From the NCBI GenBank assembly GCA_964596415.1, contig CAZQSX010000001.1, forward strand, positions 37,508 to 101,507: a stretch of DNA of 64,000 bases. The letters are read 5' to 3'. Of the stretch, positions 13,845 to 59,019 are shown piece by piece. Made by a program: the position numbers and the translations under genes. This DNA is from an uncultured Gammaproteobacteria bacterium (GTDB taxonomy: Bacteria; Patescibacteriota; Microgenomatia; Levybacterales; GWA1-39-11). Under the pieces are notes generated by a model. The model worked only from the letters and a program-made list of their open reading frames with translations. It made no database searches and was not told the DNA's origin. Positions within the stretch are counted from its first letter, which is position 1. Every line of letters begins with the position of its first letter.

Positions 13845-13856
13845 TTATATACTGTT

Positions 13857-19975: not shown

Positions 19976-20611
19976 TTAATTAGTAATATCTTTTGAAAAA
20001 TATACTTTTCCGCCTATAGATGTTTTATATACGTTTCCTGAAATATTTCCCGTTGTTATTCTATCAATACTGATAACTCTATTAAATGAGATGATGGTAT
20101 TAATAAAGCTGTTTATGTTTTTTTCAGCGCCTACTGCTTCAAGCGAGAAAGTATATGAATAGAGATCGTTTGCATTATTCTCAAGCGGAAAAAATTCAAC
20201 AGTACCAGAGGTAAGTGATTGTATATTTACGTTATTATCTTGTGCGATTGTTTCAACCTGTCTCATAAACGTTGGAATTTGTGACGAGGATGGTACCGCA
20301 CCATAAATATAAGGAAGATCTTTTTCTAGTAATTTATATTCTCGAGTCAAATTAGCAAGAGCATTCAGCTTGGTTTCCAAGGCATCAGCTATTTTTTTAT
20401 TATCTTCATACTGTTTATTAAGCGTTGATATTGTTGAAAAGGCAGGCAGAAGAGCAAATATTCCAAAAATAGAAATGGTAAGAAAACTGAAAACAAGGTA
20501 TGTGTATGTAATTACTTTCTCTTTATTTACACCTGTACCCAAAGGAGTACTATTTGGATTTTTTCTTGGTTGAATTATTGGTTGTTGTGTATTTGAAGAT
20601 GTAGGTATCAT
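19976..20611 (-). CDS. pilO: type IV pilus assembly protein PilO-like
   Basis: Short cytoplasmic N-terminus, one TM, a coiled coil (NKQYEDNKKIADALETKLNALANL), then a ferredoxin-like C-terminal region. 4-nt overlap with upstream pilN. Confidence 0.6.
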   Translation of the reverse strand: MIPTSSNTQQPIIQPRKNPNSTPLGTGVNKEKVITYTYLVFSFLTISIFGIFALLPAFSTISTLNKQYEDNKKIADALETKLNALANLTREYKLLEKDLPYIYGAVPSSSQIPTFMRQVETIAQDNNVNIQSLTSGTVEFFPLENNANDLYSYTFSLEAVGAEKNINSFINTIISFNRVISIDRITTGNISGNVYKTSIGGKVYFSKDITN

Positions 20612-21162
20612 ACTTCTTTTTTGTTAGACAATAACTGTACAGTTATTCTGAACCGAACTCCCTGATCAAGCGTTGAAAGCTCCTCCATGGAGATTGTTTC
20701 AACATTTGGATTTTTTTTCAGCGCTTCAACAAATGAGTTAAGAGAAAAAACAGAACTTGCCTGACCATCAATTGCGACTGTGTTGTCAGTAAGGTTTAAA
20801 CTGTTTGAGAGTAGAGCGCTTTGAGAAGCAAGCGAGAGTATGTCTTTTAAGAATTGAACTTTGGTTTGCGTATCAGAGGTTATTGATTGGATAGTATCTA
20901 TGCGTGACTGTAGGTTTCTGAATTGTTTTTCTTGCTGAGCTTGTGCCTGAATAAAAATTTGCTGGTTTTTGATTTCGTCATTCAAGTCTACAATTTTTTG
21001 ATCTATAAAAAACCGATATCCAAGCGCACCAAGCGCGAGAAGCTCTATTACTATTACAATAATTCTTCCTCGGCTAATAGCCCATTTTATAAATATATTT
21101 CCAGTGTTGGTTTCCTTCTTTTTTCCAAGGTTAATATTGAGACGATAGGCGTCATTCTGCAT
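20608..21162 (-). CDS. pilN: type IV pilus assembly protein PilN-like
   Basis: N-terminal ~33-aa cytoplasmic segment (LNINLG), one TM (IIVIVIELLALGALGY), a long coiled coil, and a C-terminal beta-rich domain. Confidence 0.6.
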   Translation of the reverse strand: MQNDAYRLNINLGKKKETNTGNIFIKWAISRGRIIVIVIELLALGALGYRFFIDQKIVDLNDEIKNQQIFIQAQAQQEKQFRNLQSRIDTIQSITSDTQTKVQFLKDILSLASQSALLSNSLNLTDNTVAIDGQASSVFSLNSFVEALKKNPNVETISMEELSTLDQGVRFRITVQLLSNKKEV

Positions 21163-25741: not shown

Positions 25742-26839
25742 TCAGAGAATGAAAAGGAAGGCGCCTACCACAACGGCAACTGCTGCGGCACCTGCAACCA
25801 TAAGCGCTGTTTCAAAAGTTCCTGTCACGGGAAGTGTGGGAACAGCTGTTCCGCCTGTACCACCAGTTGATCCACCTGTTGAGCCAGATCCTGAACCTGC
25901 AGTGATGGTAACTGTTTGCGTGCATGATCCAGCTGTGCTTGTGAGCCCTCCATCATCAGTAAGCGTTGCCGTTACGTTATAGGTGCCAGCAGTTGTAAAG
26001 GTATGAGCTATTTGAACATTTACTGAATTTGTTCCAATTCCTCCACCTGTTGTTACAGCTTGGGCAGGTCCGTCTCCAAAGTTGAATGAAGCATTAGAAA
26101 TGGTGCCTCCATTATCTGACCCAGTTGCTGTAAATATGATTGCGTAGGGTGCTGCTCCAGCTGCTGATCTATCAAGTGAAAGTGCGGTGCAGACAGGTGC
26201 TTGGTTTGCCAAAGGAGTCGGGCTTAAAGTTCCTGTGGGATTGGTTCCACCGACTCCACCGGTTGGAGTAGGGGAAAGATTAGTGCCATCAGTTACCGTG
26301 ACAGATGCTGTGCCTCCACCCTGGAGAACGTTTTCTGTTTCACCATCTGCTGAAGCAAGCGAAAATGCTTGTGATGGTGGGGTATCAAACTTAATAATAG
26401 ATGGACCACTTGTTAGTTTTTTACTTTTAACAGTCAAAGTTGCCGCTTTTGTAACGGTTTGGATTGCACGAGCAACATCATTTGATGTTGACATGGCAGC
26501 AGTTACTGTGCCTGATTGGATATCAGGGCCTTTTAAGCTTACTGGAAATGCTGTTTCATTTCTCTCTAGGCTTACAATTTCAAAAACGTCAGGATCAACG
26601 GAGATGGTTACATCTAGAATGGAGACTACGTTTTGTCCAGGATCTACAAAAATATCAAACGTTGCGGTTTCGCCAAGTCCTATTTCAGCAGTTGCCGGTT
26701 GGAATGAAAGGTTTGTGGAAGGCGCAGCTTTAGATTTAAGATTTGTTTGTTGACGAACTACAAAAAGCGTGACAGGAATAACGATTAGTAAAAGAAGTAT
26801 GTTTCCTAAGATAAACCATTTATTTTTTAAAATACCCAT
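25742..26839 (-). CDS. LPxTG-type surface protein with cohesin-like and PKD-like domains
   Basis: Signal anchor (FILGNILLLLIVIPVTLFVV), a cohesin-like domain, a PKD-like region (YNVTATLTDDGGLTS), a Gly/Ser/Thr linker, and C-terminal LPVTGTFETALMVAGAAAVAVVVGAFLFIL. Start taken at the internal Met (MGILKNKWF); the ORF track starts at 26947. The gene is visibly G+C-richer than its surroundings. Confidence 0.75.
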   Translation of the reverse strand: MGILKNKWFILGNILLLLIVIPVTLFVVRQQTNLKSKAAPSTNLSFQPATAEIGLGETATFDIFVDPGQNVVSILDVTISVDPDVFEIVSLERNETAFPVSLKGPDIQSGTVTAAMSTSNDVARAIQTVTKAATLTVKSKKLTSGPSIIKFDTPPSQAFSLASADGETENVLQGGGTASVTVTDGTNLSPTPTGGVGGTNPTGTLSPTPLANQAPVCTALSLDRSAAGAAPYAIIFTATGSDNGGTISNASFNFGDGPAQAVTTGGGIGTNSVNVQIAHTFTTAGTYNVTATLTDDGGLTSTAGSCTQTVTITAGSGSGSTGGSTGGTGGTAVPTLPVTGTFETALMVAGAAAVAVVVGAFLFIL

Positions 26840-26912
26840 AGAACAGGCAAGAAATATGCCTCTATCAGCGTATCCAATTTGGTATGTATTGTCAACTATT
26901 TGAAAAAAACAC

Positions 26913-26966
26913 TTGACAAAGAATGAAGTTTTTCTTAAAATTAGCAATCAGAAGACTAAATTGATA

Positions 26967-29120: not shown

Positions 29121-29945
29121 ATGGTTGATGTGCATTGTCATTTAAATTTCTATAAATTTGAAAATGATTTTGATCAAGTGATAAAAGATGCATTTCAGGC
29201 TGGAGTTAAAACCATTGTTAATACGGGAACAAGTATTGAATCAAGTAAAAAAGCAGTTGATCTAGCCTCGAAATATCCTAATTTGTACGCTATTGTTGGT
29301 ATTCATCCGCATCATGCGGACAAATCAGATGAAAAATATGAGGGCTTGATGCCCGAGGATTGGCTGGAGCAACTCGAAAAATTAGCTAAAAATGAAAAGG
29401 TGATAGGAATCGGAGAAATAGGGATGGATTATTGGAATTACCGGACAAATGGGATAGTTCCAAAAGATTTGCAGGAAGATGCTTTTAGAAAACAAATTGA
29501 ACTTTCCATAAAGCTATCTCTTCCGCTTCAAATTCACACGCGTCTTGCGTGGGATGATACGCTTTCTATACTTTCTGATTATGTAAAAGACTTGCAGGAT
29601 GTGCCAGGAATGTTTCATTGCTTTTCAGGAAGTACTGAATTTGCAAAAAAAGTTCTTGACGCAGGTTTTTATGTAGGATTTGATGGGAACATTACGTATC
29701 CAGGTATTCCACCAGGAGAAAGTACTGCGTTGTCAGAACTTGTGAAGTATGTGCCAATTGAGCGTATAGTTACTGAAACAGATAGTCCATTCTTGTCACC
29801 ACAAATTCTTCGTGGAACCAGAAATACCCCTAAAAATGTTATAATTATAGCAGGGGAGATCGCCCGGTTAAAAGGTATATCCTTTGAAGAGGTAAATACT
29901 ATTACCACAAAAAACGCACAAACAGTTTTTAGAAACATTGTATGA
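29121..29945 (+). CDS. tatD: TatD-family metal-dependent hydrolase/DNase
   Basis: MVDVHCHLNF, GIGEIGMDY, and His/Asp/Glu ligand pattern through HCFSG and FDGNITY. Confidence 0.85.
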   Translation: MVDVHCHLNFYKFENDFDQVIKDAFQAGVKTIVNTGTSIESSKKAVDLASKYPNLYAIVGIHPHHADKSDEKYEGLMPEDWLEQLEKLAKNEKVIGIGEIGMDYWNYRTNGIVPKDLQEDAFRKQIELSIKLSLPLQIHTRLAWDDTLSILSDYVKDLQDVPGMFHCFSGSTEFAKKVLDAGFYVGFDGNITYPGIPPGESTALSELVKYVPIERIVTETDSPFLSPQILRGTRNTPKNVIIIAGEIARLKGISFEEVNTITTKNAQTVFRNIV

Positions 29946-31438
29946 ATTATTATTTGAGCCTGTTTTTTACCAGATATCCGAGAAAATCAATAAGACTTCT
30001 TGAATTAATCCCTCCTTTGACCGCCCTATTTCTTATTAGTATCCCGTTTTGGGGATCGTTTTTCTTTCCGGTAATTCTTGCTTACTTTATTATATTCTTT
30101 GATATTTGGTGGCTTTATAAGTCTGTAAATTTGGCAATTTGTTCATTTATTGCGTCTAGAAAAATAAAAATTGCTGAAAAAACAGACTGGATGGAGAAAG
30201 TAATGAGTTTGCCACAAAGTTTAAAAATACATCATATTATTATCATCCCTACCTATAAAGAATCGCTAAATAAGCTCATGGAGACCATAAATAGTATCCA
30301 GTCTCAGACATTTCCCAAAAAACAAATACATATTTATTTAGCAATGGAAGAGAGGGAGGCAGAGGCTTTTCAGAAAGCAAAAGAATTGATAAAGCATTAC
30401 AAAAATGTTTTTGGAACAATAACGGCAACATTCCATCCGGATTTACCAAATGAAGTAAAAGGAAAATCTTCGAACCAAGCATTTGCAAGTGTTAAAGCGT
30501 ATAAGGAGTTAGTTGAGGGGGGTCGCATTGATATAGATTATGCGACAATCTCATCTGTTGATGCTGATTCTATTTTTGATGAGCAATATTTTGCGCACGT
30601 AGCTTACACATTTCTTACTTGCAAGAATCCTCATCTCTCATTTTTTCAATCTGCAAATGTTTACTATAATAATTTTTGGAAAGTTCCAGCTGGAACTCGG
30701 GTTATTGCATTTTTTGGAAGCTTATTGAGGACTTCACTTCTCGTTCAGGGATTAAAACTTATTCCTAATTCAACATATACACTTTCCTTTAAGCTTTTGA
30801 AAAACATCGGATATTGGGATACAGATGTTATTCCAGAAGACTATCGGGTATTTTTTAAAGCATTTTTTATGAATGAAGGAAAGGTTTCAGTTGAGCCAAT
30901 TTTTCTTAAAACGTCTATGGATGCACCTCAATCTATGACGTATGTTGGAAGCCTTATGAATAAATATAACCAAGAAAGAAGATGGTCTTGGGGAATTTCA
31001 GATGATGCTGTGTTTCTAAGATGGTGGTTGACCGTAAAAAATGTTCCTTTTCTAAAAAAGACATATTTGGTTTCAAATGTTTTGCTAGATCATATTTTAT
31101 GGCCAGTAAACTGGTTTATTATTACCATTTCTGCAAATTTAGTCGTATTTTTGAATCCTGTTTTTTCAAGAACAAGTCTTGGATATACGCTTCCTCAACT
31201 TTCAGGGTTCATATTAACGGTATGTTTATTTACTCTTTTTATTATGATTTATGTTGATTTTGATCTTCGTTCAAATAAATACGCGAAACCTTCTAAAATG
31301 AAACAGTTTATGTTTCCTTTAGAATTTGTGCTTATGCCGATTGCTGGATTTTTACTTTCCACAATTCCAGCGCTTATGTCACACCTACAACTCATACGAG
31401 GAAAGAGGATGGAGTATAAAGTAACTGAAAAGGTCTAA
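29942..31438 (+). CDS. membrane-integrated processive family-2 glycosyltransferase (cellulose/chitin-synthase-like)
   Basis: N-terminal TM pair, a GT-A domain with DxD (SSVDADSIF), the QxxRW motif (QERRWSWG), then a C-terminal multi-TM region. ATGA overlap with tatD. Confidence 0.8.
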   Translation: MNYYLSLFFTRYPRKSIRLLELIPPLTALFLISIPFWGSFFFPVILAYFIIFFDIWWLYKSVNLAICSFIASRKIKIAEKTDWMEKVMSLPQSLKIHHIIIIPTYKESLNKLMETINSIQSQTFPKKQIHIYLAMEEREAEAFQKAKELIKHYKNVFGTITATFHPDLPNEVKGKSSNQAFASVKAYKELVEGGRIDIDYATISSVDADSIFDEQYFAHVAYTFLTCKNPHLSFFQSANVYYNNFWKVPAGTRVIAFFGSLLRTSLLVQGLKLIPNSTYTLSFKLLKNIGYWDTDVIPEDYRVFFKAFFMNEGKVSVEPIFLKTSMDAPQSMTYVGSLMNKYNQERRWSWGISDDAVFLRWWLTVKNVPFLKKTYLVSNVLLDHILWPVNWFIITISANLVVFLNPVFSRTSLGYTLPQLSGFILTVCLFTLFIMIYVDFDLRSNKYAKPSKMKQFMFPLEFVLMPIAGFLLSTIPALMSHLQLIRGKRMEYKVTEKV

Positions 31439-31463
31439 CGACCATTTTTCTATAACTTTGCGT

Positions 31464-31478
31464 CTTGCCTTTGGCAAG
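31464..31478 (+). terminator. weak hairpin (CTTGCC-ttt-GGCAAG) followed by TTTAAAAGTT after the GT2 gene
   Basis: 6-bp stem with a 3-nt loop. The downstream run is A/T-rich but not a clean U-tract. Confidence 0.3.
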
Positions 31479-31486
31479 TTTAAAAG

Positions 31487-33040
31487 TTGCCAATAAATTC
31501 TAGAATGGAGTTATTAAAAAAAATTTATAAAAAAGAAGTAAAGCCTGACTATGATTATTTCTTTCTCATTGGGGTTGTATTTTTATTTATCCTTCTAAGG
31601 ATTCCATCCCTTGTTGAGCCAGATTGGTATGGTGATGAAGGAATATATCAGGTAATTGGACGAGCACTTAATTCGGGGAGAATGTTATATTCTGGGATCT
31701 GGGATAATAAGCCGCCGCTTTTATACGTTTTATACGCGTTTGTAAATGGAGATTTATTTTTAATTAGATTGTTGTCTCTTGTTTTCGGAGCGCTTTCAAT
31801 AATTGTGTTTTTCTTTGTTGCAAGAAATCTTTTTCAGAAAAGGGTTTCATTATTTTCTGCAACTTTTGCTTTTGGATTTTTGTTTGGGATACCTCTTCTG
31901 GAAGGAAATATTGCAAATGCAGAGAATTTCATGATTCTGCCAATTCTTCTTGCTTTGTATCTTTTAATAAAACTTAAAAAATCTTCGTCAGTTTTTCAGC
32001 CTGCCCTTATAGGGATACTTCTTTCAGTTGCATTTTTAACGAAGATAGTTGCGTTGTTTGATTTTATTGCATTTGTTTTTATTTTATTTACGTTACGTTT
32101 TTATGATTTAAGTTTTATTGATTTGAAGCATTTTCTTTCACGTCCAAAAGAGCTTATCAGGGTTATAAAGCTTGAAACGATTCTTGCGGTTGCATTTCTA
32201 ACCCCCATTTTTTTAACAGGTCTGTACTTTTTACTCGTAGGTAGTTTTCAAGATTTTTTTAGGGCAGCGTTCTCCCAAAATGTAGGATATGTAGGATACG
32301 CGAATTTATTACAGTTTAAGCTGGGAACCATGGACGTGTCTGTGCCGCAAGGGATTTTAATACTGAAAGTAATTGCTTTATTTATCGCAATAATACTTAC
32401 CATTCTGTTTAGAAGAAAACTTGGAAGGGCAGGAGTAGCAATATATCTTTGGATGTTATTTTCACTTTTTAATACGTTTTTTTCAGGAAGACCGTATACG
32501 CATTATATGTTAGTTTCCCTACCTGCTTTTTGTTTATTTTTTGGTTTATTATTTGAAAAAGCAGAAGTGCGATTAAAAGTGTTTCATGTTTTCATATTTA
32601 TTATTGTCTTACTTCTTTTGCGAAAAAACTTTTGGATGTATACAAAAATCACACCGTACTATGCAAATTATGTTGAATTTATGAATGGGCAAAGGTCTAT
32701 TACAACATATCAATCTTTTTTTGATAGAATAACACCTAGAGATTATGAGATAGCTCGATTTATTGAGATAAATACAAAACCAGAAGATGCAATATTTTTA
32801 GTTTCTGACAGTGGGCAAATTTATTTTCTCGCGGATAAGTTACCACCTGGACGTTATATAGTTGCATATCATATTTCATTTTATAAAGATGGAATTTTAG
32901 AAACTCAGAAAGCAATAGATGAAGCAAAACCAAAATATATAATTGTTACAAAAGATGGTGAGTTGAAAAATAATTTTTTATCAAATTATGAATTAAGATA
33001 TTTACTAAATTCAATCCAAATTTATGAGCGTGAGGAATAG
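31487..33040 (+). CDS. GT-C-fold glycosyltransferase of the ArnT/PMT (family 39/83-like) type
   Basis: First extracytoplasmic loop DWYGDEGIYQVIGRALNSGRMLYSGIWDNKPPLLYVLYAF, with the DE/D-x-D acidic motif and hydrophobic pattern typical of PMT_2/ArnT. About 12 TM helices plus a C-terminal soluble domain. Confidence 0.7.
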   Translation: MPINSRMELLKKIYKKEVKPDYDYFFLIGVVFLFILLRIPSLVEPDWYGDEGIYQVIGRALNSGRMLYSGIWDNKPPLLYVLYAFVNGDLFLIRLLSLVFGALSIIVFFFVARNLFQKRVSLFSATFAFGFLFGIPLLEGNIANAENFMILPILLALYLLIKLKKSSSVFQPALIGILLSVAFLTKIVALFDFIAFVFILFTLRFYDLSFIDLKHFLSRPKELIRVIKLETILAVAFLTPIFLTGLYFLLVGSFQDFFRAAFSQNVGYVGYANLLQFKLGTMDVSVPQGILILKVIALFIAIILTILFRRKLGRAGVAIYLWMLFSLFNTFFSGRPYTHYMLVSLPAFCLFFGLLFEKAEVRLKVFHVFIFIIVLLLLRKNFWMYTKITPYYANYVEFMNGQRSITTYQSFFDRITPRDYEIARFIEINTKPEDAIFLVSDSGQIYFLADKLPPGRYIVAYHISFYKDGILETQKAIDEAKPKYIIVTKDGELKNNFLSNYELRYLLNSIQIYEREE

Positions 33041-36381: not shown

Positions 36382-36425
36382 TGACAAATTAGCAGTTAAT
36401 ATGCTAGACTGCTAATGTATAAATT
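36382..36425 (+). promoter_or_regulatory. hsp20 promoter with embedded CIRCE-like operator: -35 TTGACA, TTAGCA-gttaatatgctagac-TGCTAA, -10 TATAAAT
   Basis: The inverted repeat TTAGCA-N15-TGCTAA has exactly the spacing of the canonical CIRCE (TTAGCACTC-N9-GAGTGCTAA) and lies between the -35 and -10 boxes. Confidence 0.65.
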
Positions 36426-36587: not shown

Positions 36588-37022
36588 ATGGCAATTATAA
36601 GATGGAATCCTTGGAATATAGATCGCTTCTTTGAAGACGATTTTGACATGCCGACCATTCCTGGTGTATCTAGGCTTATGGGTCAAGGTCTTAATATCTA
36701 TGAAACAGAAAGTGCAGTAGTTGCAGAAGCAGCACTTCCTGGAATACAGGAGGATAAAGTAGACGTGACTTTCGAAGATGGAGTGGTTCGAGTAAGTGCA
36801 TCAATGGAAGATAATAAGGAAGAAAAAGATAAAAGACGATATTTTATGTCTTCTATGTCTACTTCCTTCAACTATTCATTTAAGGTTCCAACAGGGATTG
36901 TTCAGGATAAGGAACCAGAGGCAGAGCTGGAAGATGGTGTTCTGAAACTTACATTCAAAAAGATTGAAAAGAAAGAACCCAAGAAAATTAAAGTTACTAA
37001 AAAAGCAAAAGTTTTAAAATAG
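36588..37022 (+). CDS. Hsp20/alpha-crystallin small heat-shock protein
   Basis: MAIIRWNPW...DRFFEDDF N-terminus, an alpha-crystallin domain (VDVTFEDGVVRV ... AELEDGVLKLTF), and a basic C-terminus. Confidence 0.9.
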   Translation: MAIIRWNPWNIDRFFEDDFDMPTIPGVSRLMGQGLNIYETESAVVAEAALPGIQEDKVDVTFEDGVVRVSASMEDNKEEKDKRRYFMSSMSTSFNYSFKVPTGIVQDKEPEAELEDGVLKLTFKKIEKKEPKKIKVTKKAKVLK

Positions 37023-47035: not shown

Positions 47036-47073
47036 CTTGACACCAATTAGCAGTCGTGGTATATTATTGCTAA
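47036..47073 (+). promoter_or_regulatory. hrcA promoter region with CIRCE-like operator TTAGCA-gtcgtggtatattat-TGCTAA preceded by TTGACA
   Basis: Outer half-sites are perfect with a 15-nt spacer. Lies in the pyrB/hrcA divergent intergenic region. Confidence 0.6.
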
Positions 47074-47124
47074 TCCTTCGACTCGCTCTGTTTGCTCAGG
47101 ACAAGCACAAGGATTTTTAATACC

Positions 47125-47850
47125 ATGTATGATTTGACACCACGCCAAGTAGATATCTTAAAGCTTATTGTCAAGGAGTATATAGATAATGCAGAGCCTG
47201 TTGGCTCTGAAACCCTTGAAAAAAAATATGATATTGGGGTTTCACCCGCAACTATCAGAAATGAGATGGCAGAGATGGTGAAGCTTGGATATCTTTCAAA
47301 ACCTCATACATCAGCTGGTCGAATACCTTCTACAAAGGCATTAAAGCTTTACATAAATGAGCTTATGCGTGAAAAAGAAATTTCAGTAGCTGATGAAGTT
47401 CAAGCAAAAGAAAAAGTGTGGGATTATAGGGCAACACGAGATAAGTTTTTGCGCGAAGTTACAAAAAATTTAGCCCAAAAAACACATTCGCTTGCGGTTA
47501 CAACTACTTCTGAGGGAGATATTTATTATGCAGGATATGGAAATATTTTGGAGATGCCTGAATTTTACGATATTGATATAGCAAAAAATTTTCTTACCCT
47601 TCTTGATAATACTTCTTGCTTTGAAAGCATCATTGAACGTATGGAAAACGATTTTGGAATTTTTTTGGGTGATGAGTTAGGGAGCGAGCTGTATAAACCA
47701 TACAGTTTTATTTTTAGTAGATTTGATGTAAAATCTCATCAATGTCAGGGTTCAATTGGAGTGGTAGGTCCAGCTAGAGTAAGGTATGATTCGCTTGTAC
47801 CAACCGTTAAATTTTTTGGAGGGCTTATAGAAGACGTTGCTGAATGGTAG
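47125..47850 (+). CDS. hrcA: heat-inducible transcription repressor HrcA (short form, ~241 aa)
   Basis: N-terminal wHTH LTPRQVDILKLIVKEYIDNAEPVGSETL...SAGRIPSTKALKLYINELM. C-terminal GSIGVVGPARVRYDSLVPTVKFFGG is HrcA-like. Confidence 0.85.
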   Translation: MYDLTPRQVDILKLIVKEYIDNAEPVGSETLEKKYDIGVSPATIRNEMAEMVKLGYLSKPHTSAGRIPSTKALKLYINELMREKEISVADEVQAKEKVWDYRATRDKFLREVTKNLAQKTHSLAVTTTSEGDIYYAGYGNILEMPEFYDIDIAKNFLTLLDNTSCFESIIERMENDFGIFLGDELGSELYKPYSFIFSRFDVKSHQCQGSIGVVGPARVRYDSLVPTVKFFGGLIEDVAEW

Positions 47851-47897
47851 GATTTGAAACAGTAGTTTTAGAAGTTATAATTTATAATTAAATTCAG

Positions 47898-48443
47898 ATG
47901 GATAAGAAAAATAAGCAAAGCTTGCGACCCTCAGATGAGTCTGAAGGTCTAAAGAAACATGAAGAAACAACAGAAGAATTTGAAGAGGAGCTTGATCAGG
48001 AAGAGCACGTAGGAGAGGAACAAGAGGAGTCAGAAGCAGATGCTAGGGTAAAAAACTTAGAGGATCAATTAAAGCGGGCAGTTGCAGATTATCGTAATCT
48101 TGAAAATAGGGTGCAGGAGGAACGGATTGAGTTTGTAAAATTTGCAAATAAAAATTTGTTAGAAAATTTACTTCCTGCTTTTGACACAATAATTTTGGCC
48201 TCTCAATATTCTGAGGACCAGAACTTGCAAGTGACCGTAAAGTATTTACTTGATATTTTAAAGCAGGCAGGAGTAGAAAAAGTAGAAACAATTGGTCAGA
48301 AATTTGACCCGGTGACCATGGAGGCAATTGAGGTTATTGCGGGAAATGAAGGAGAGGTTGTAGAAGAGTCTCAGCCAGGATTTACACTGCATGGTAAGAT
48401 ATTAAGACCTGCGAGAGTAAAAGTGGGAAGGGAGAAGGAGTAA
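47898..48443 (+). CDS. grpE: nucleotide exchange factor GrpE
   Basis: Acidic N-terminus, long coiled coil (LKRAVADYRNLENRVQEERIEF), and a C-terminal beta-domain (GKILRPARVKV). Confidence 0.85.
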   Translation: MDKKNKQSLRPSDESEGLKKHEETTEEFEEELDQEEHVGEEQEESEADARVKNLEDQLKRAVADYRNLENRVQEERIEFVKFANKNLLENLLPAFDTIILASQYSEDQNLQVTVKYLLDILKQAGVEKVETIGQKFDPVTMEAIEVIAGNEGEVVEESQPGFTLHGKILRPARVKVGREKE

Positions 48444-48530
48444 GAAAAAACTATAATTTAAAATTTTTAATTTCTCATGAATTTTTAAAAGTGATTGAAA
48501 ATTTAAGATTTATAATTTAAAATTAAACCT

Positions 48531-50462
48531 ATGTCTAAAATTATTGGTATTGATTTAGGAACAACAAATTCATGCGTTGCTGTTATGGAAGCAGGCACGC
48601 CTAAGGTTATTTTTTCTGCTGAAGGTAGAAATGTTACTCCTTCTGTGGTTGATCCAGTTGATCGTGTTGTGGGAGATGTGGCAAAGCGTCAAATGGTTTT
48701 AAAGCCAAAAAGAATAATTTTCTCCATAAAAAGACTCATGGGAAGACGTTTTAAAGATAAGGAAGTGCAAGATGATTTAAAGCTTCTTCCGTATACCATA
48801 GAGGCAGGAAAAGAAGGCATGGCGATAGTTGAAGTAGAGGGTAAAAAATATACTCCAGAGGAAATTTCTGCAATGATTTTAACAAAGCTTAAAAATGACG
48901 CAGAATCATACTTGGGTGGAAAAGTAACACAAGCAGTTATTACAGTTCCAGCATATTTTGATGATTCTCAGCGTCAAGCAACAAAACAAGCAGGAGAAAT
49001 TGCTGGACTTGAGGTGCTTCGAATAGTAAATGAGCCAACAGCAGCGGCACTTGCCTATGGGCTTGATAAAAAACATGCGCATACCATTGCAGTTTATGAC
49101 ATGGGAGGCGGAACATTTGATATTTCTATACTTGAACTTGGTGAAGGAGTATATGAAGTAAAAGCAACAAATGGAGATACCCATTTAGGTGGAGATGATT
49201 TTGATCAAAAAATAATTGATTATATTGCTGATGAATTTAAAAAAGAAAATAGTATTGATTTGCGAAAAGATTCTCAGGCACTTCAAAGACTCAAAGAAGC
49301 AGCAGAAAAAGCAAAAATTGAACTTTCAACTTCTCAAGAGGCAGAGATTAACCAACCGTTTATAACACAAGGCGCAAATGGTCCGCTTCATCTAACCATG
49401 AAGTTAACGCGTAGCAAGCTTGAAAGCATCGTAGGTGAGTTAATAACAAACTCCTTTAAGCCAGTTGAGGCAGCCTTGAAAGATGCTGGAATGGATGCAT
49501 CTAAAGTAGATGAGGTGATTTTAGTAGGAGGTATGACGCGTATGCCAAAAATTGTTGAAGAAGTTGGAAAGTTCTTTGGAAAAGAACCAAATAAATCTGT
49601 CAATCCTGATGAGGTTGTTGCGGTTGGAGCAGCTGTTCAGGCAGGAGTTTTGGGTGGAGACGTGAAAGATGTACTGCTTTTAGATGTAACACCATTGACA
49701 CTGGGGATAGAAACATTAGGAGGAGTTGCAACGCCATTAATAAATCGCAATTCAACAATCCCTACTAAAAAATCTCAAGTATTTTCAACAGCTGCTGATA
49801 ATCAGACTCAGGTTGAAATTCATGTAGTTCAAGGGGAACGACCAATGGCTGCCGACAACAAGTCATTGGGTAGATTTATTTTAGATGGAATTCCACCAGC
49901 GCCCCGTGGTGTTCCCCAGGTTGAAGTGACCTTTGACATAGATGCTTCAGGACTTTTATCAGTTACCGCAAAGGATAATGCTTCAGGAAAAGAGCAAAGC
50001 ATTAAGATAACCGGTGGAACTGGTTTGTCAAAAGAAGAGGTTGAGAAAATGACAAAAGAAGCAGAAATGAATGCTGCTGAAGATGAAAAGAAAAAAGAAA
50101 TGATTGAAGTGAAAAACCGCGCGGATGGACTGATCTTTACTGCAGAAAAATCCCTTAAAGACTTGGGGGATAAAGTGCCCGCAGATTTGAAAACAGACGT
50201 TGAAGCAAAAATTGAGGCGCTAAGAGAAGCGCTGAAAGGTGATGATAAAGAGGCAATTGAAGCAAAAACAACAGAACTTTCAGAGCATCTCTCAAAAATA
50301 GGTGAACAGATGCAGCAGCAGCCAGGAGGACAGCCTGGAGCCGAACAGGCATCAGGGGAAACAGCGGGAGAACAGGCTGAGACTTCTTCAGAAGAAAACG
50401 GAGAAAAAAAAGAAGAAACGAAAGATAAAGACGAAGCAGTTGAAGGTGAAGTGGTGAATTAG
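48531..50462 (+). CDS. dnaK: molecular chaperone DnaK (Hsp70)
   Basis: [22 protein letters not shown], and an acidic C-terminal tail. Confidence 0.95.
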
Positions 50463-50591
50463 GAATTAGATACGAGGAATTAAAGATTAGAAAAATGCAA
50501 GAAACATCTTTACCAATGCCTACGCAAGACATCCCAATGGGATGTTTAATGTGTGGGAAGATGTAGAAAATAGCTTCAGTAGTAAATTGCA

Positions 50592-50619
50592 GATCTCCCA
50601 CAAAAGGGGAGATTTTTTT
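50592..50619 (+). terminator. rho-independent terminator after dnaK (AGATCTCCC-acaaaag-GGGAGAT followed by TTTTTTT)
   Basis: 7-bp GC-containing stem followed by a 7-T run, directly before the next ORF. Confidence 0.7.
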
Positions 50620-51730: not shown

Positions 51731-51784
51731 TATATCAATGGAATTGTTTCTTTCAAATAGTCTTTTGTGATACTATAAATAGGT

Positions 51785-52075
51785 ATGGAATGTGCTGTTA
51801 ATGAGGTGGCAACAGATTTAGGTTGTCTACCTAATGATCCTGTTGGATTTATTCAAAAGTTTTATGGTATTGGCCTGTCACTTATTGGCATGGTTGCATT
51901 ACTATTTCTCATTTATGGAGGGTATCATATTTTAACCTCTGGTGGAAATTCCGAACAACTTCAAAAAGGAAAAGAATATATCTATTATGCTATAGCAGGA
52001 TTATTGCTTGCTATTTTTGGATTTGTTTTTGTGCAGTTTATTGCTGCAGGATTAAGAATTCCCGGATTTTCGTAA
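51785..52075 (+). CDS. small two-TM protein resembling the TrbC/VirB2-type T4SS pilins common in CPR-like genomes
   Basis: Two Cys near the N-terminus (CAVNEVATDLGCLPNDP). Helix 1 IGLSLIGMVALLFLIYGGYHILTSGGN, a short polar loop (EQLQKGKE), then helix 2 YIYYAIAGLLLAIFGFVFVQFIAAGL. No cleavable signal peptide. Confidence 0.5.
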   Translation: MECAVNEVATDLGCLPNDPVGFIQKFYGIGLSLIGMVALLFLIYGGYHILTSGGNSEQLQKGKEYIYYAIAGLLLAIFGFVFVQFIAAGLRIPGFS

Positions 52076-52086
52076 AAGGTAACACT

Positions 52087-54345
52087 ATGTATAAAAAACT
52101 GCCCATTTTTATAACCTGTTTTATATTTGTAAGCATACTTTTCTTTGGATTTGTCAAAAGTGTTTTCGCTCAGACAACAACAACTTCTGTTACTCCAACG
52201 CCTGAATTAATACAAGAAATTCAGCAAAGTTTTCCAGGTCTTCCTATAGATATTCCAGATTTAACTAATCCATCTGGAGGGCTTCCGATTGGAACAAGTC
52301 CAGTTGCTGAGGGCACTTGGGTTTCTGATTCAAATGTAACGTTTGTTGGAAAAACCGCATCTCGGTCAGGAGATTTTCTTGATTGGACTTTAAGAAATTA
52401 TGATTGGGCATGTGCTACAAAAAATGCAAATGGGTCATGTTCTAACCAAGGAAATCCACTTGTTGGGTTTTGGGCTTTAATTAGAAATATTGTGTACGCA
52501 CTTCTTATAGCAGTTGTACTTGTTGCAGCATTTGTCATGATTATAACTCGCGGAAGAAGCATTACCGTTATGCGTTTTATTCCTCGATTTATCTTTATTC
52601 TTGTTCTTGTGACTCTTTCGTATTCCTTGATACAGTTTATTTATCAAATAACAGATATTATAACTGGTTTTTTTCTTAGAGTAAGCGGATCTCTTATTTC
52701 AACAAAAGATTTAATTTTTATAGGATTTAACTATCAGACTTTTGAGGGTTTAAGGCTAGCTGGTTCAAAGTATGACGAGTCTGCGTTTATAACGCTTTTA
52801 TTAGTCAGGCTTACTGCCATAACGTATTATGTTATGACAGGGATTCTTCTTATTAGAAAAATTATTCTTTGGTTTTTTATAGTACTTTCCCCTATTTTCC
52901 CTCTTTTATTTTTCTTTAGGCCCGTAAGAAATACAGGAAAAATTTGGATAGGAGAATTTTTTAGATGGTTATTATATGCGCCGCTTTTCGCAATCTTTTT
53001 GCATGGATTGGTTGTTTTATGGAGTAGTGGAAGTCCTGATAAACCAGGAATTCCACTTGCTTTTGATTTGACAAGTCCAGGGCGCATTCCAGGTGTTGAG
53101 GCAAATGTTGTATATCCAACTGCCGTGAACATATTAATTGGTGGTCCAGGTCAGCAAATTGGAATTTATAATTCAGTTAATCTTCAGGACACATTTGCGC
53201 TTTATGTTGTTGCTCTTCTTATGCTTTGGGTTGTGATACTTCTTCCATTTATCTTACTTAAAATCTTCTTAGACTATCTGACTAATATTTCGCTTAAGGA
53301 TAATGTAACGCTTCAGAAGATGTGGGATAGGGGTATGGCGCCATTTAATCCAAAACCACCTTCTCCTGCGACCCCACCAATAGTTCCACCACCTGCTACA
53401 ACAGGGCTTGCAAAGTCTTTGCCATTTGCAGCAGGAATTTCTAGAACATTAAATCAAACAAAAAACATCACAGAAAATAAGACTGTTAATCAAGCTATGT
53501 CTAGTCCTGTAAATACGCAAATTCTCCAACTCTCAAATCTCTCAATTCCAAAAATGAGAGATATCGCAAAGTTTGAGACTTCTATGGTTTCAAAAGATAC
53601 AACTCGTCAACACGAAGTTAATAGATTAAAGACTTCACTTTCAAGAATTGCGAATCCAAGCTCAGTTCAAAGCGCATCAGAAAGAGATCGTTACACGCAG
53701 GTGAAACATCAGTTGACACAAGAAAAACAAAAAGGTAACGCTTTGGCTTCATCTATTCTTTCCGCAGCAAACACAACAAATCAGGCTTCCCGCGCTCATG
53801 TACCTGGGCAAAAAATTGCAGCCGTAGCAAATCTTCCAACTGTTAATAGGGTTCAGCAGGTTTCACTTGAAGATTATGAGGAGGTTAGAAAAATGTGGGT
53901 TGAAACATATCAATCATCAGAGCCCCCAACTGATCTAGCAGGAAAACAGGCAAATCGTGAAGAATGGATTAAGGGTGATATTGATAAGATTAATCAAGCA
54001 ATTACGCTTCTATCATCTATTGATCCAAGTCGTTCACAAGAAGGGATGGATATGGTTTCAAATATTTTGCCATTTCTAATGGTTGGAGGATTTTCAAAAA
54101 CTGAAGTTATAGCATACCTAAAAGCAAAACTTGAAGCAGCAAAGCAGGTAATGTCAGACACTAATAAAAAGAAAGAGGATGAGGAGGGTATGGTTGAAAG
54201 AGCCACTGGAACAACAACCGCTGAAAAACATATGACAATGGAAGCAGAAGCAAAAATTCCAGATGAAGAAGCGCCTAAAAAAACATTTGATACCCCTGAA
54301 GATGGTCAAGCAAAAATTGACGATTTGAGAAAAACAGGAGTGTAG
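52087..54345 (+). CDS. signal-peptide-bearing polytopic membrane protein (6 TM) with a long C-terminal hydrophilic domain; VirB6/TrbL-like topology
   Basis: SP MYKKLPIFITCFIFVSILFFGFVKSVFA, a Thr-rich N-terminal exodomain, six hydrophobic helices between about aa 125 and 400, and a C-terminal domain of about 350 aa rich in polar residues. Confidence 0.45.
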   Translation: MYKKLPIFITCFIFVSILFFGFVKSVFAQTTTTSVTPTPELIQEIQQSFPGLPIDIPDLTNPSGGLPIGTSPVAEGTWVSDSNVTFVGKTASRSGDFLDWTLRNYDWACATKNANGSCSNQGNPLVGFWALIRNIVYALLIAVVLVAAFVMIITRGRSITVMRFIPRFIFILVLVTLSYSLIQFIYQITDIITGFFLRVSGSLISTKDLIFIGFNYQTFEGLRLAGSKYDESAFITLLLVRLTAITYYVMTGILLIRKIILWFFIVLSPIFPLLFFFRPVRNTGKIWIGEFFRWLLYAPLFAIFLHGLVVLWSSGSPDKPGIPLAFDLTSPGRIPGVEANVVYPTAVNILIGGPGQQIGIYNSVNLQDTFALYVVALLMLWVVILLPFILLKIFLDYLTNISLKDNVTLQKMWDRGMAPFNPKPPSPATPPIVPPPATTGLAKSLPFAAGISRTLNQTKNITENKTVNQAMSSPVNTQILQLSNLSIPKMRDIAKFETSMVSKDTTRQHEVNRLKTSLSRIANPSSVQSASERDRYTQVKHQLTQEKQKGNALASSILSAANTTNQASRAHVPGQKIAAVANLPTVNRVQQVSLEDYEEVRKMWVETYQSSEPPTDLAGKQANREEWIKGDIDKINQAITLLSSIDPSRSQEGMDMVSNILPFLMVGGFSKTEVIAYLKAKLEAAKQVMSDTNKKKEDEEGMVERATGTTTAEKHMTMEAEAKIPDEEAPKKTFDTPEDGQAKIDDLRKTGV

Positions 54346-57225: not shown

Positions 57226-59019
57226 ATGCATAAGGTTCGTAAGATTCTTCAGATTCAAGGAAAATTGGCTTATTCATTTTTACTACTCGGTATAGGAATT
57301 GGGATAGTGCTCATTCTTTTATATTTCTTTTTTTCAAGCAGAATTGCGGCAGAAAATGTCAGAACAGAAATATTTCCAGAAGGAGCAAGATATGCAAAAA
57401 ATCAAATAATTGTTAAATATAGATCAGGTTTTTCTCCACATGTATTAAACGCGCAAAACAAAAAACAAGACTTAGATCTTCTTGAAAATAAGCTAAAAAG
57501 TATTGGGGTTATTTCTCAAAATCGATTGTTTATTTCAGATAATATATTGCTTGAAAATTATTACATTTTAAATTTGCCTCAGGATAGTGATATTTTTCAG
57601 GTTTACACAAAGCTTTCAAAATTTTCAGAAATTGATGCAATCACCCCAGATTACATCTTAAGTGTTCAGGAGGTTCCTGATGATCCGGCGTATTCCTCTC
57701 TTTGGGGACTTTCTGAAATTTCAGCACCGAAAGCTTGGGATATTAAAAATGGGAAGAGTAATGTAATAGTAGGAATTGTTGATACTGGAGTTGATTTGAA
57801 TCATGAAGACTTGAAGGGAAACGTAATAAAAGGTGTAAATACTGTTGATGAAACTCGTGATCCTTCAGATGATCACGGGCATGGGACGCATGTTGCGGGA
57901 ACAGTTGGTGCAATCACTAATAATGCAATTGGAATTTCCAGTATTTCTTGGGGCGCAAAGCTATTGGCAATAAAAAGTTGTGATGAAAATGGAGATTGTA
58001 AAACCTCAGATGTATCAAAAGGTATAAAATACGCAATAGATAACGGCGCAAAAATTGTAAATGTGAGTGTTGCGGGTGAAGGGAGTTGTCGGGGTACATA
58101 TGATGATATGAGTAAATATGCAAAAGAAAAAAATGTACTACTTGTTGTTGCTGCCGGAAATGGAATAAATGGGAGAGGAGTAGATGCGAGAAAATGGATA
58201 CCTGCCGGATGTAATGATATATTTACTATTGGTGCGTTTGGTCCGTCTGGAGATCGGGCTCCATATTCAAACTATGGGAATGTTTTGTCTATGTCAGCTC
58301 CAGGAGGAGATAGGGGTTCAGAGGCGTGTACAGAATCAACTTGCATCTTATCAACCAGCAATAACAATACATACTCGCTTCGTCAAGGTACTTCTATGGC
58401 GGCGCCTCAAGTAAGTGGAGCCGCAGCGCTTTTGTTATCATATAATCCATTACTTTCTGTTAGTCAGATTCGCTCGTGCTTGATTCAAGGCGGAGATGTC
58501 TTAACAACTGATAAATACATTGGAAAAAAATTAAACACCCAAAAAGCGCTTATGAGATGTGCGCCCATTGCATCTCCTACGCCTATTCAGAAAGTTGAGG
58601 ATTCTGGAAACTTATCTATTTCTGGCATTGTATATGCAGATGAAAATAATGATAAGTCTTTTGACTCAAATGAGATGCCAATTGTTGGTGCACAGGTTAT
58701 ACTTTCAGGATATGATTCACAAAGTGTTCTCTCAAATTCTACTGGTCGTTATATCTTTCCAGATTTAAAACCTGGTTTTTATACGATTTCAGTTTCAGTA
58801 GGCGGTCAAAGCGCGGGAGATTTGTATGATGTTTCGCTTCTCAAGTTATTTCCAAATGTACAAATAGATCTTCCTATTTCCTCTGAGTATATACCTTCAC
58901 CTACTCAGGATCAAAATCCAAAACCAACCCAGCAAGCATCCAGTATTCAATGTGTCCCTGACCCTGCTTGCGAATCTGCTGAGGGAAGTATTCAAATCTG
59001 CTCGCTGAAATGTGAATAA
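57226..59019 (+). CDS. secreted subtilisin-family (S8) serine protease with I9-like propeptide and C-terminal SdrD-B/Cna-B-like domain
   Basis: N-terminal TM/signal. Catalytic triad motifs VGIVDTGVD (Asp), HGTHVAGTVGA (His), GTSMAAPQVSGAAALL (Ser). C-terminal GIVYADENNDKSFDSNEMPIVGAQVILSGYD...GRYIFPDLKPGFYTISV. Confidence 0.9.
   Translation: MHKVRKILQIQGKLAYSFLLLGIGIGIVLILLYFFFSSRIAAENVRTEIFPEGARYAKNQIIVKYRSGFSPHVLNAQNKKQDLDLLENKLKSIGVISQNRLFISDNILLENYYILNLPQDSDIFQVYTKLSKFSEIDAITPDYILSVQEVPDDPAYSSLWGLSEISAPKAWDIKNGKSNVIVGIVDTGVDLNHEDLKGNVIKGVNTVDETRDPSDDHGHGTHVAGTVGAITNNAIGISSISWGAKLLAIKSCDENGDCKTSDVSKGIKYAIDNGAKIVNVSVAGEGSCRGTYDDMSKYAKEKNVLLVVAAGNGINGRGVDARKWIPAGCNDIFTIGAFGPSGDRAPYSNYGNVLSMSAPGGDRGSEACTESTCILSTSNNNTYSLRQGTSMAAPQVSGAAALLLSYNPLLSVSQIRSCLIQGGDVLTTDKYIGKKLNTQKALMRCAPIASPTPIQKVEDSGNLSISGIVYADENNDKSFDSNEMPIVGAQVILSGYDSQSVLSNSTGRYIFPDLKPGFYTISVSVGGQSAGDLYDVSLLKLFPNVQIDLPISSEYIPSPTQDQNPKPTQQASSIQCVPDPACESAEGSIQICSLKCE

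Follow-up and report, generated by a model that had tools for sequence, protein, structure and literature searches.

We analysed a stretch of 64,000 nucleotides (the window; positions 37,508 to 101,507 of the forward strand of contig CAZQSX010000001.1, GenBank assembly GCA_964596415.1) from an uncultured bacterium in which two adjacent genes encode a small pilin-like protein and a large membrane protein that resembles the VirB6/TrbL subunits of type IV secretion systems (T4SSs). The names given to the homologues suggest Candidatus Levybacteria (Microgenomatia, candidate phyla radiation (CPR)/Patescibacteria), and the host is therefore of the ultrasmall CPR, Levybacteria type. Both open reading frames (ORFs) are present with the lengths of 96 and 752 amino acids (aa) and on the plus strand, as an earlier note made from the letters alone had placed them, and 11 bp separate them (Table 1). 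Downstream of the pair in the window are an Hsp100/ClpB-like ATPase, an S8 protease, DnaJ, and a second ClpB-like gene.

The pilin-like and the VirB6-like protein

The 96-aa protein has hydrophobic helices at about residues 25-50 and 65-92, and the loop between them is glycine-rich and basic and holds LIYGGYHILTSGGNSEQLQKGKEYIYYAIAGLLLA; the two-helix hairpin with a glycine-rich turn that had been described was seen by hydropathy. The N-terminal tail is acidic with cysteines C3 and C14, and the C-terminal motif is L-R-I-P-G-F-S. Over residues 21-86 the protein scored 31.3 bits (E 2e-7) on the Pfam T4SS_pilin family PF18895, whose gathering score is 26.6. It also matched the NCBIfam model of the Mbov_0395 pilin-like protein from a Mycoplasma integrative and conjugative element (ICE) with 29.6 bits (E 4e-7), which is under the cut-off of that model. 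The TrbC/VirB2 family PF04956 did not match it at E values up to 10. The proposal that it is a pilin was upheld through PF18895 and not through PF04956. Pilin paralogues with a signal peptide in related loci matched PF04956 weakly (26.8 bits, cut-off 27.9), and hidden Markov models from unrelated pilin paralogues of other loci recognised the 96-aa protein with E values of 1.6e-14 and 2.2e-10. The 96-aa ORF is the sole pilin of the window because a profile search found no further pilin or PrgI gene there.

Since an in-frame TAA lies three codons 5' of the pilin ATG, the ORF cannot encode a signal peptide. There is likewise no room for one in about 64 of 76 orthologues, and about 12 have one. 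In the orthologues that have it the predicted cleavage is just before the Cys motif, and therefore the leaderless form begins roughly at the mature start of the others. The missing signal peptide is a variant feature and does not disqualify the protein from PF18895. Among the 76 orthologues the mean net charge is -2.8 for the N-tail and +1.45 for the loop, two N-tail cysteines are found in 70, and the C-terminus reads [ILV]-P-G-F in 73 and IPGF in 64. These features fit a topology in which both termini would be outside and the loop inside, with the short acidic N-tail translocated without a signal peptide. Such translocation is established for short acidic N-tails and needs YidC and the proton-motive force, and we infer that it extends to this pilin.

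The start of the pilin gene shows some microvariation. Near-identical contigs of other samples (L001 2568-2576) have ATG where the window has ATA (51779-51787), two codons before the pilin start, and the ATG variant gives a 98-aa product (MGMECAV...) that is again without a signal peptide. The candidate promoter upstream of the pilin gene (Table 1) would, if real, yield a leaderless or near-leaderless pilin mRNA, and our confidence in this is low; the consensus promoter scan, which demands T at position 6 of the -10 hexamer, did not report this site.

The ORFs are real genes and did not arise by chance, as 604 word-indexed homologues were found. When 1.84 billion cluster representatives were searched exhaustively with HMMER, 615 matched at E values up to 1e-3, of which 331 were at E values up to 1e-30. 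Residues 1-28 are signal peptide-like and end in ...VFA/QT, and the ectodomain that follows the Thr-rich linker has conserved columns at V84, F86, G88, K89, R93, Y105, and W107 in 37 sequences. The hydrophobic core extends from residue 124 to 402 by hydropathy. An AlphaFold2 model was built from the 37-sequence family alignment, in which over 100 columns are invariant although identity is no higher than 45-65%; the pLDDT (predicted local distance difference test) score of the transmembrane core was 75-89, and the tail and linkers were of low confidence. A Kyte-Doolittle scan gave six hydrophobic segments whereas the model has five long helices (124-154, 159-197, 230-274, 278-313, and 367-400), and the number of transmembrane helices is therefore given as five or six. 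The protein is polytopic in either case, having at least five. Of the layout that the earlier note had described, the signal peptide, the Thr-rich part, and the hydrophilic tail were recovered, but its six helices have to be read as five or six.

When the 37 family members were scanned singly, 27 matched TrbL at E values below 0.01, the best being 3.5e-7, and precomputed matches to PF04610 (TrbL/VirB6) exist for several members. Foldseek was run with the model against 350,542 PDB chains. The R388 TrwI/VirB6 chains were at the top with probabilities of 0.96-0.99 and template-modelling scores on the target (TM-target) of 0.48-0.55, although the E values of these matches were weak (0.1-0.5). We regard it as established on the predicted structure that the transmembrane core has the VirB6 fold. 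Basic stretches follow helices 1, 3, and 5 in a positive-inside pattern, and this suggests for the modelled core the classical VirB6 topology, namely, N-terminus out, five transmembrane helices, and C-terminus in, hence a cytoplasmic tail.

The hydrophilic C-terminal tail of 350 aa contains 46 K/R and 43 D/E residues. The number of its repeats varies among orthologues, and family members reach 2,000-3,266 aa. The terminal 113-aa domain has 26 invariant columns and was modelled as a four-helix bundle with a pLDDT of 83; no informative structural neighbour and no PDB match were found for it. Long repeat-expanded tails were seen in P0246-P0260 and P0383, and in P0065 (L007 10001-13747) the entire module of repeats and terminal bundle is duplicated.

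Table 1. Coordinates of the pair, its domains, and neighbouring features in the window
Feature	Position	Strand	Basis or remark
Pilin-like ORF, 96 aa	51785-52075	+	ORF list and translation
VirB6/TrbL-like ORF, extended polytopic membrane protein, 752 aa	52087-54345	+	ORF list and translation
Signal peptide (residues 1-28), Thr-rich linker, Cys-containing ectodomain (residues ~75-123)	52087-52455	+	hydropathy; conserved columns
VirB6-like transmembrane core, residues 124-400	52456-53286	+	
Hydrophilic tail, '...ANP...GNPLA...' helical repeat units	53494-53832	+	alignment, tail extraction
C-terminal four-helix-bundle domain, residues 583-695, probably cytoplasmic	53833-54171	+	
CIRCE-like operator (controlling inverted repeat of chaperone expression; 47047-47073) and hrcA-grpE-dnaK heat-shock operon	47047-50462	+	CIRCE: 3 mismatches, 0.02 expected by chance
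Strong terminator 3' of dnaK	50591-50615		
Candidate promoter TTTCAA-17-TATAAA	51751-51779	+	by eye; ends 5 nt 5' of pilin ATG; low confidence
Hsp100 (ClpB/ClpC-like) double-ring AAA+ ATPase without M-domain, 921 aa	54439-57204	+	Pfam Clp_N, AAA, AAA_lid_9, AAA_2, ClpB_D2-small
Membrane-anchored S8 (subtilisin/mycosin-like) protease	57226-59019	+	Pfam Peptidase_S8
Second Hsp100-like ATPase, 798 aa	60335-62731	+	Pfam, NCBIfam, translation

Gene order around the pair

One genome per GTDB species was scanned. Relatives of the pair were found in 144 species genomes, and 80 loci were analysed with 10-kb flanks. Each count below gives the loci in which a neighbour was kept among the loci in which its region was visible, and since the loci are phylogenetically related these counts do not represent independent events. 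The pilin gene is directly upstream of the virB6-like gene in 73 of 77 loci, the gap having a median of 3 bp, so the pairing that the earlier note had suggested checking in related genomes is kept, and the two genes are, as judged from the sequence, translationally coupled. The chaperone and protease neighbours are also real and conserved. DnaK is within 4 kb upstream in 58/64 loci and HrcA is upstream in 50/54. Downstream, an Hsp100 gene follows immediately in 53/66 loci (median gap 50 bp), a second Clp-like gene is present in 32/50, and an S8 protease in 28/50; when an upstream position up to 7 kb away is also counted, Hsp100 is kept in 43/47. The outer flanks vary, with pyr genes in 6/51 loci and a 2-hydroxyacid dehydrogenase in 7/50.

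The usual order is hrcA-grpE-dnaK-(dnaJ)-pilin-virB6-like-Hsp100. The gap from dnaJ to the pilin gene has a median of 53 bp and is below 100 bp in 24 of the 33 loci that have dnaJ before the pilin gene. CIRCE-like operators were found before hrcA in 47 loci, and none was found directly 5' of the pair in the window or in the relatives; elsewhere such sites precede only hrcA and the small heat-shock protein (HSP) gene of the window. Because the genes form a same-strand string with short gaps and CIRCE stands before hrcA only, the stretch from hrcA to Hsp100 looks like one HrcA-controlled unit in many relatives. In the window a strong promoter overlaps the CIRCE-like site upstream of hrcA, and the linkage to dnaK is looser than in the relatives in that a terminator and three small genes, one of them divergent, are between dnaK and the pair. 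There is also a promoter-like site between the virB6-like gene and the Hsp100 gene. A second CIRCE-like inverted repeat (36389-36415, 3 mismatches, 0.02 by chance) lies 5' of a small HSP20-type gene (36588-37022), and the two repeats in the window indicate an HrcA regulon.

The 921-aa Hsp100 scored 893 bits against the NCBIfam ClpB model, which is under the cut-off of 1232, and the match fell into two blocks, with profile positions of about 415-525, the M-domain, left out between them. Among PDB sequences ClpA aligned to it as a single block, and ClpC and ClpB each as two (ClpC 390 to 469 opposite query 466 to 473). The coiled-coil M-domain docks DnaK in canonical ClpB. Since this domain is skipped and the score is under the ClpB cut-off, this Hsp100 is not a canonical DnaK-partnered ClpB. 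A ClpP-docking IGF/IGL loop was not seen in it by eye, and it has long low-complexity extensions at both termini. The S8 protease has an N-terminal membrane anchor, and its best NCBIfam match is the mycosin of the type VII secretion system (151 bits, under the cut-off); that it could process the IPGF C-terminus of the pilin or the ectodomain of the VirB6-like protein is pure speculation. The 798-aa Hsp100-like protein lacks Clp_N and has instead a hydrophobic N-terminus with about two putative transmembrane helices (residues ~20-62), and hence it may be membrane-anchored.

A different gene order was found in Daviesbacteria-type genomes, in 6 of the 80 loci and in loci reached by pilin searches (L060, L062, L064, L093-L098). 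It runs PrgI/VirB3-like, a 296-aa protein, a giant protein, a polytopic protein, ten T4SS_pilin genes, a pilin-domain protein, an M23 peptidase, a 166-aa protein, and Hsp100, followed by a pilin, family X (described below), two pilins, a leaderless 98-aa pilin, the VirB6-like protein, a SpoIID-domain hydrolase, a protein with two transmembrane helices, DUF5657, a 624-aa protein, and SmpB. This island of about 30 kb thus has about 13 pilin genes, two cell-wall hydrolases (M23 and SpoIID), the PrgI/VirB3-like gene (Pfam 34.8 bits, cut-off 27), and an M-domain-less Hsp100; the pilin arrays, hydrolases, and PrgI are within about 26 kb of the pair. Since the genes around the pair are those for arrays of pilins, hydrolases of the VirB1 type, and a VirB3-like protein, the pair belongs to a T4SS-like gene set. 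The earlier note had called the pair an orphan, which is not the case in these relatives but is correct in so far as VirB4 was never seen. The Hsp100 gene is in mid-island, where it overlaps a pilin gene by 4 bp (L062, L093) or is separated from it by 2 bp (L094), and it encodes the only Walker-A protein in the 30 kb of contiguous island. Its linkage to the pair was kept despite complete reshuffling and the loss of dnaK, with the exception of L095, which has no Hsp100 within 10 kb. The island was seen in L094 and L096 (one JGI contig, 17489-47859), L097, and L098. Its PrgI/VirB3-like protein is fused to a long Pro-rich extension, its giant protein is of 1,500-1,900 aa with no Pfam match, and its polytopic protein is of 617-696 aa.

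Two further proteins were seen around the pair in relatives. Family X, which has an N-terminal transmembrane anchor and an ectodomain of about 460 aa with no Pfam match, is present in 21-22 of the 80 loci (among them L025, L042, L043, L050, L053, L055, L060, L062, L064, L070, L072, and L073) and absent from the window. It takes three positions, namely, the dnaK/pilin interval, the virB6-like/Hsp100 interval, and a divergent one upstream of pilins. A protein of 387-436 aa with a C-terminal T4SS_pilin domain is encoded upstream of hrcA on the opposite strand in L007 (4122-5285), L061, L083, L091, and L092, and a homologue of it comes first in the pilin array of the variant genomes.

VirB4 and the interpretation of the pair

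VirB4 is the only universal component of T4SSs, while a coupling protein (VirD4) and a relaxase are needed in conjugative systems. None of the three was found in the 64-kb window, in which all ORFs of at least 120 aa were translated and the unassigned ones were scanned with Pfam, and this agrees with what the earlier note had stated. The large P-loop proteins of the window are UvrD, LepA, and the two Clp-like ATPases, and the other P-loop proteins are housekeeping ones unrelated to GroEL. Similarly, VirB4, VirD4, and relaxase were not found within 10 kb on either side of the pair in the 80 species loci, and no T4SS ATPase was seen when all of the more than 80 related loci were considered. When the unassigned ORFs with 300 aa or more from the 80 loci were inspected, a Walker A motif was found only in IF-2 and an ABC transporter. 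Large unannotated proteins of related loci (488, 624, 696, 714, 911, 1522, and 1570 aa) were considered as cryptic ATPases and rejected because they have no Walker A motif and no ATPase Pfam match. The earlier note had held that its proposal would fall if homologues of the pair were never found near T4SS ATPases. At every locus examined the pair is indeed away from VirB4 and VirD4; this does not overturn the homology.

The reading that we favour, with somewhat better than even confidence, is that the pair is a divergent pilin/VirB6 membrane module of a Patescibacteria-type T4SS, the VirB6 that profiles have missed in Microgenomatia, encoded apart from its ATPase. Most likely this class has its 'missing' VirB6, a highly divergent one, in this family. 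In Patescibacteria VirB4, VirB3, VirB6, and arrays of VirB2-like pilins are present, and in Southlakia these are essential (PMC12102498; PMC12857230). Quinonero-Coronel et al. 2025 (PMC12102498) reported VirB4 in 2,417 of 3,035 Patescibacteria assemblies and the lack of a relaxase in most of the T4SS clusters. The same survey (PMC12102498) found that VirB4 of Microgenomatia is usually near dnaA/dnaN, that T4SS genes are often away from virB4, with only 22.6% of the VirB3 homologues of this class near it, and that VirB6 is 'scarce' in Microgenomatia, 'suggesting extreme sequence divergence'. It examined virB4 neighbourhoods only, and Clp and DnaK are not mentioned in its text.

The favoured reading is based on the homology and fold of the two proteins and on the conservation, coupling, and gene context of their genes, from which we infer the topology, an oligomeric platform, a pilus or channel function, and energisation in trans. 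The apparatus would be a monoderm, T4SS-like one of the Patescibacteria type, derived from the mating-pair-formation class FATA (MPF-FATA). The small protein would be a VirB2-like pilin that lost its signal peptide; once inserted, it would expose its C-terminus and its acidic N-tail, which would hold a disulfide bond, on the outer side and keep the basic loop within the cell. By analogy with R388, the TrwI-like core of the VirB6-like protein may form an oligomeric platform that collects membrane-stored pilins and pushes them outward. The long repeat tail would be cytoplasmic, its terminal four-helix bundle probably docking a cytoplasmic partner or motor, and VirB4 would energise the module in trans.

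Several results weigh against this reading. Besides the lack of VirB4 in the window and near the pair in the 80 loci, no VirB4 was seen in the 30 kb of contiguous variant island, although the stretch covered ends at prgI and the usual place of virB4 in monoderm systems is just beyond. In the accessible part of Table S1 of the survey (PMC12102498), 20 Levybacteria assemblies are VirB4-positive and 24 are negative (~45% positive) at similar assembly sizes, and nearly all ABY1 and Paceibacteria metagenome-assembled genomes (MAGs) of the same project listed there are positive. Four assemblies that carry the pair could be matched to this part of the table, of which L042, L045, and L077 are scored VirB4-negative and L057 positive. 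Since the assemblies in the table are draft MAGs, the absence of VirB4 is not proven. As for the VirB6/TrbL identity that the earlier note had drawn from the topology, it was upheld by the fold found with Foldseek; in Pfam the window protein scored 21.0 bits, under the PF04610 cut-off of 25.9 (E 3e-4, residues 141-305). A search of all PDB sequences with the family-alignment profile did not find VirB6, the sole match being a spurious coiled-coil at an E value of 5.8, and therefore the homology had to rest on structure. With only 615 relatives the family stands by itself and does not pass gradually, by sequence, into canonical TrbL/VirB6. Finally, no pilus, channel, or substrate has been seen for any member of the family, the role of which as a pilus or channel is putative.

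If VirB4 does not energise the module, the main rival reading, which we hold to be rather unlikely, is a VirB4-independent machine in which the adjacent M-domain-less Hsp100 replaces VirB4, either as a pilin dislocase or as a substrate unfoldase for the VirB6-like channel, the unit being co-expressed with the heat-shock regulon. The Hsp100 gene stays adjacent or nearby upstream while the outer flanks vary, and this linkage held in two different gene orders, in one of which the gene overlaps or abuts a pilin gene and encodes the sole Walker-A protein among pilin, hydrolase, and PrgI genes. However, ClpB-type genes are common in heat-shock clusters, so that adjacency to dnaK/dnaJ may alone explain the linkage; the loci share ancestry, and the variant locus L095 has no Hsp100 nearby. 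The ATPase is atypical in having no M-domain and, by eye, no ClpP-docking loop, and the last part of the VirB6-like tail is a conserved domain of a docking type that is probably cytoplasmic, but in the window a promoter-like site parts the virB6-like gene from the Hsp100 gene. Many Levybacteria are scored VirB4-negative whatever the assembly size in the part of Table S1 that is accessible, but these scores stem from draft MAGs, and there is no precedent for an Hsp100 that drives a T4SS-like system. That a T4SS-derived pilin/VirB6 apparatus works without VirB4 in Levybacteria and their relatives, powered by an HrcA-regulon Hsp100 that extracts leaderless pilins or threads unfolded cargo, is in our opinion unlikely.

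We consider it quite unlikely that the pair serves envelope or membrane proteostasis, that is, that an exapted hairpin and a VirB6-like protein (e.g., a stress-induced scaffold or channel) work with DnaK, DnaJ, Hsp100, and the S8 protease in quality control. The same-strand position of the pair within hrcA-grpE-dnaK-dnaJ ... clpB with short gaps and CIRCE-like sites before hrcA only would agree with such a role, as would the frequent presence of a membrane-anchored S8 protease and a membrane-anchored Hsp100-like protein and the lack of VirB4 nearby. In the window, however, a terminator and three genes part dnaK from the pair, and in the variant genomes the pilin arrays, peptidoglycan hydrolases, and VirB3-like gene around the pair are a secretion or pilus context; moreover, neither the VirB6 fold nor the pilin family has a known role in proteostasis. 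The sub-threshold Pfam TrbL score, the lack of a PDB sequence match, and the Foldseek E values of 0.1-0.5 would also be expected if the two were convergent look-alikes, a two-helix membrane hairpin and a polytopic helical protein with nothing but their composition in common with VirB2 and VirB6, and hydrophobic helices easily match spuriously (PrgI matched the VirB6-like protein at an E value of 8e-4); we hold this to be very unlikely. The suggestion of the earlier note that the pair may be a remnant, here a decaying one of a lost T4SS kept by chance, would account for the lack of a T4SS ATPase in the window and for the genomes scored VirB4-negative, but it is extremely unlikely because the ORFs are intact in at least 144 species and the more than 100 invariant residues, the 3-bp coupling, the Cys pair, IPGF, and the tail domain are all conserved.

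Comparison with known systems and significance

With the T4SS of Patescibacteria (Saccharimonadia: Southlakia epibionticum, TM7x; PMC12102498) the pair shares PF18895 pilins, a VirB6-like polytopic protein, a monoderm envelope, and the lack of a relaxase, and its related genomes share pilin arrays, cell-wall hydrolases, and PrgI/VirB3-like genes. It differs in that the window pilin is leaderless and single-copy, the VirB6 is discrete, very divergent, and largely missed by published profiles in Microgenomatia, and the pair is never beside virB4 and sits instead in a hrcA-dnaK-clpB cluster. Compared with TrwI/VirB6 of R388 (PDB 7o3v, 8rt9, 8rtd) and VirB6 of A. tumefaciens, the window protein has 14% identity and has in addition a cleavable signal peptide, an ectodomain that contains Cys, and a repeat tail of 350 aa that includes a four-helix bundle; no VirB5, VirB8, or VirB10 partner is encoded near the window pair, and the host is monoderm. 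Extended VirB6 proteins, a class described in PMC12857230 that includes the VirB6 paralogues of Rickettsiales and TcpH, PrgH, and ConG of Gram-positive conjugation systems, similarly have a VirB6 core and a large hydrophilic C-terminal domain of variable length, but the tail of the window family has its own ANP...GNPLA repeats and a terminal bundle without a PDB match, and no sequence similarity to them was detected.

The pilin shares the small two-helix hairpin and the basic cytoplasmic loop with VirB2/TrbC (PF04956) and Mbov_0395 of the Mycoplasma ICE. In contrast to these, most members of its family have no signal peptide, they have an N-terminal Cys pair and a C-terminal IPGF, and there is no sign of cyclisation or C-terminal processing. 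A speculative analogy may be drawn with ClpV (TssH) of type VI secretion systems (T6SSs), which is also an Hsp100 double-ring ATPase encoded inside a secretion gene cluster and which recycles the cytoplasmic sheath. The window Hsp100 scored 697 bits on the ClpV model, under its cut-off, and is closest to ClpC and ClpB, and no T6SS genes are present.

Further genes of the window were noted. PilO- and PilN-domain genes of type IV pilus assembly (19976-21162) are adjoined by a gene for a large fn3/Big_13 surface protein (18283-19656), the C-terminus of which was seen by eye to have LPQTG and a hydrophobic stretch; a PKD-domain protein (25742-26947) ends, also by eye, in LPVTG and a hydrophobic stretch. 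These two ends are possible sortase-type anchors. A secreted 717-aa protein (2222-4375) has Kelch beta-propeller repeats and a Peptidase_C39-like domain. Large polytopic membrane proteins (DUF2298, DUF2079-like, PMT_2-like, and GT2-like) are clustered at 11616-16866 and 29942-33040, which suggests an extensive envelope glycosylation machinery.

The kind of system described here is known, as T4SSs with VirB2-like pilins and VirB6 occur in CPR bacteria. The variant is new in its leaderless pilin, its discrete and divergent family of extended VirB6, its embedding among HrcA, DnaK, and Hsp100, and the lack of VirB4 nearby in more than 85 loci, and a search of the literature library at hand found no description of this arrangement of pilin, VirB6-like, and chaperone-cluster genes. 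In the only species in which this was tested, Patescibacteria need their T4SS to live as epibionts, and no function has yet been assigned to the system (PMC11665869, PMC12857230). The locus supplies a well-supported candidate for the missing VirB6 of Microgenomatia, a family of a few hundred clusters, together with a pilin subtype without signal peptide and a very stable link to the HrcA/DnaK/Hsp100 cluster instead of VirB4, and it hints that many carriers are without VirB4. If VirB4 proves to be present, the finding would improve T4SS annotation in a large CPR class and suggest stress-linked regulation of the apparatus. If VirB4 is absent in complete genomes, a T4SS-type pilin/VirB6 core with a different motor becomes directly testable, and a machine that is truly VirB4-free and driven by Hsp100 would be without precedent both as a T4SS-like machine that lacks the universal ATPase and as a secretion or pilus system with a ClpB/ClpC-type motor.

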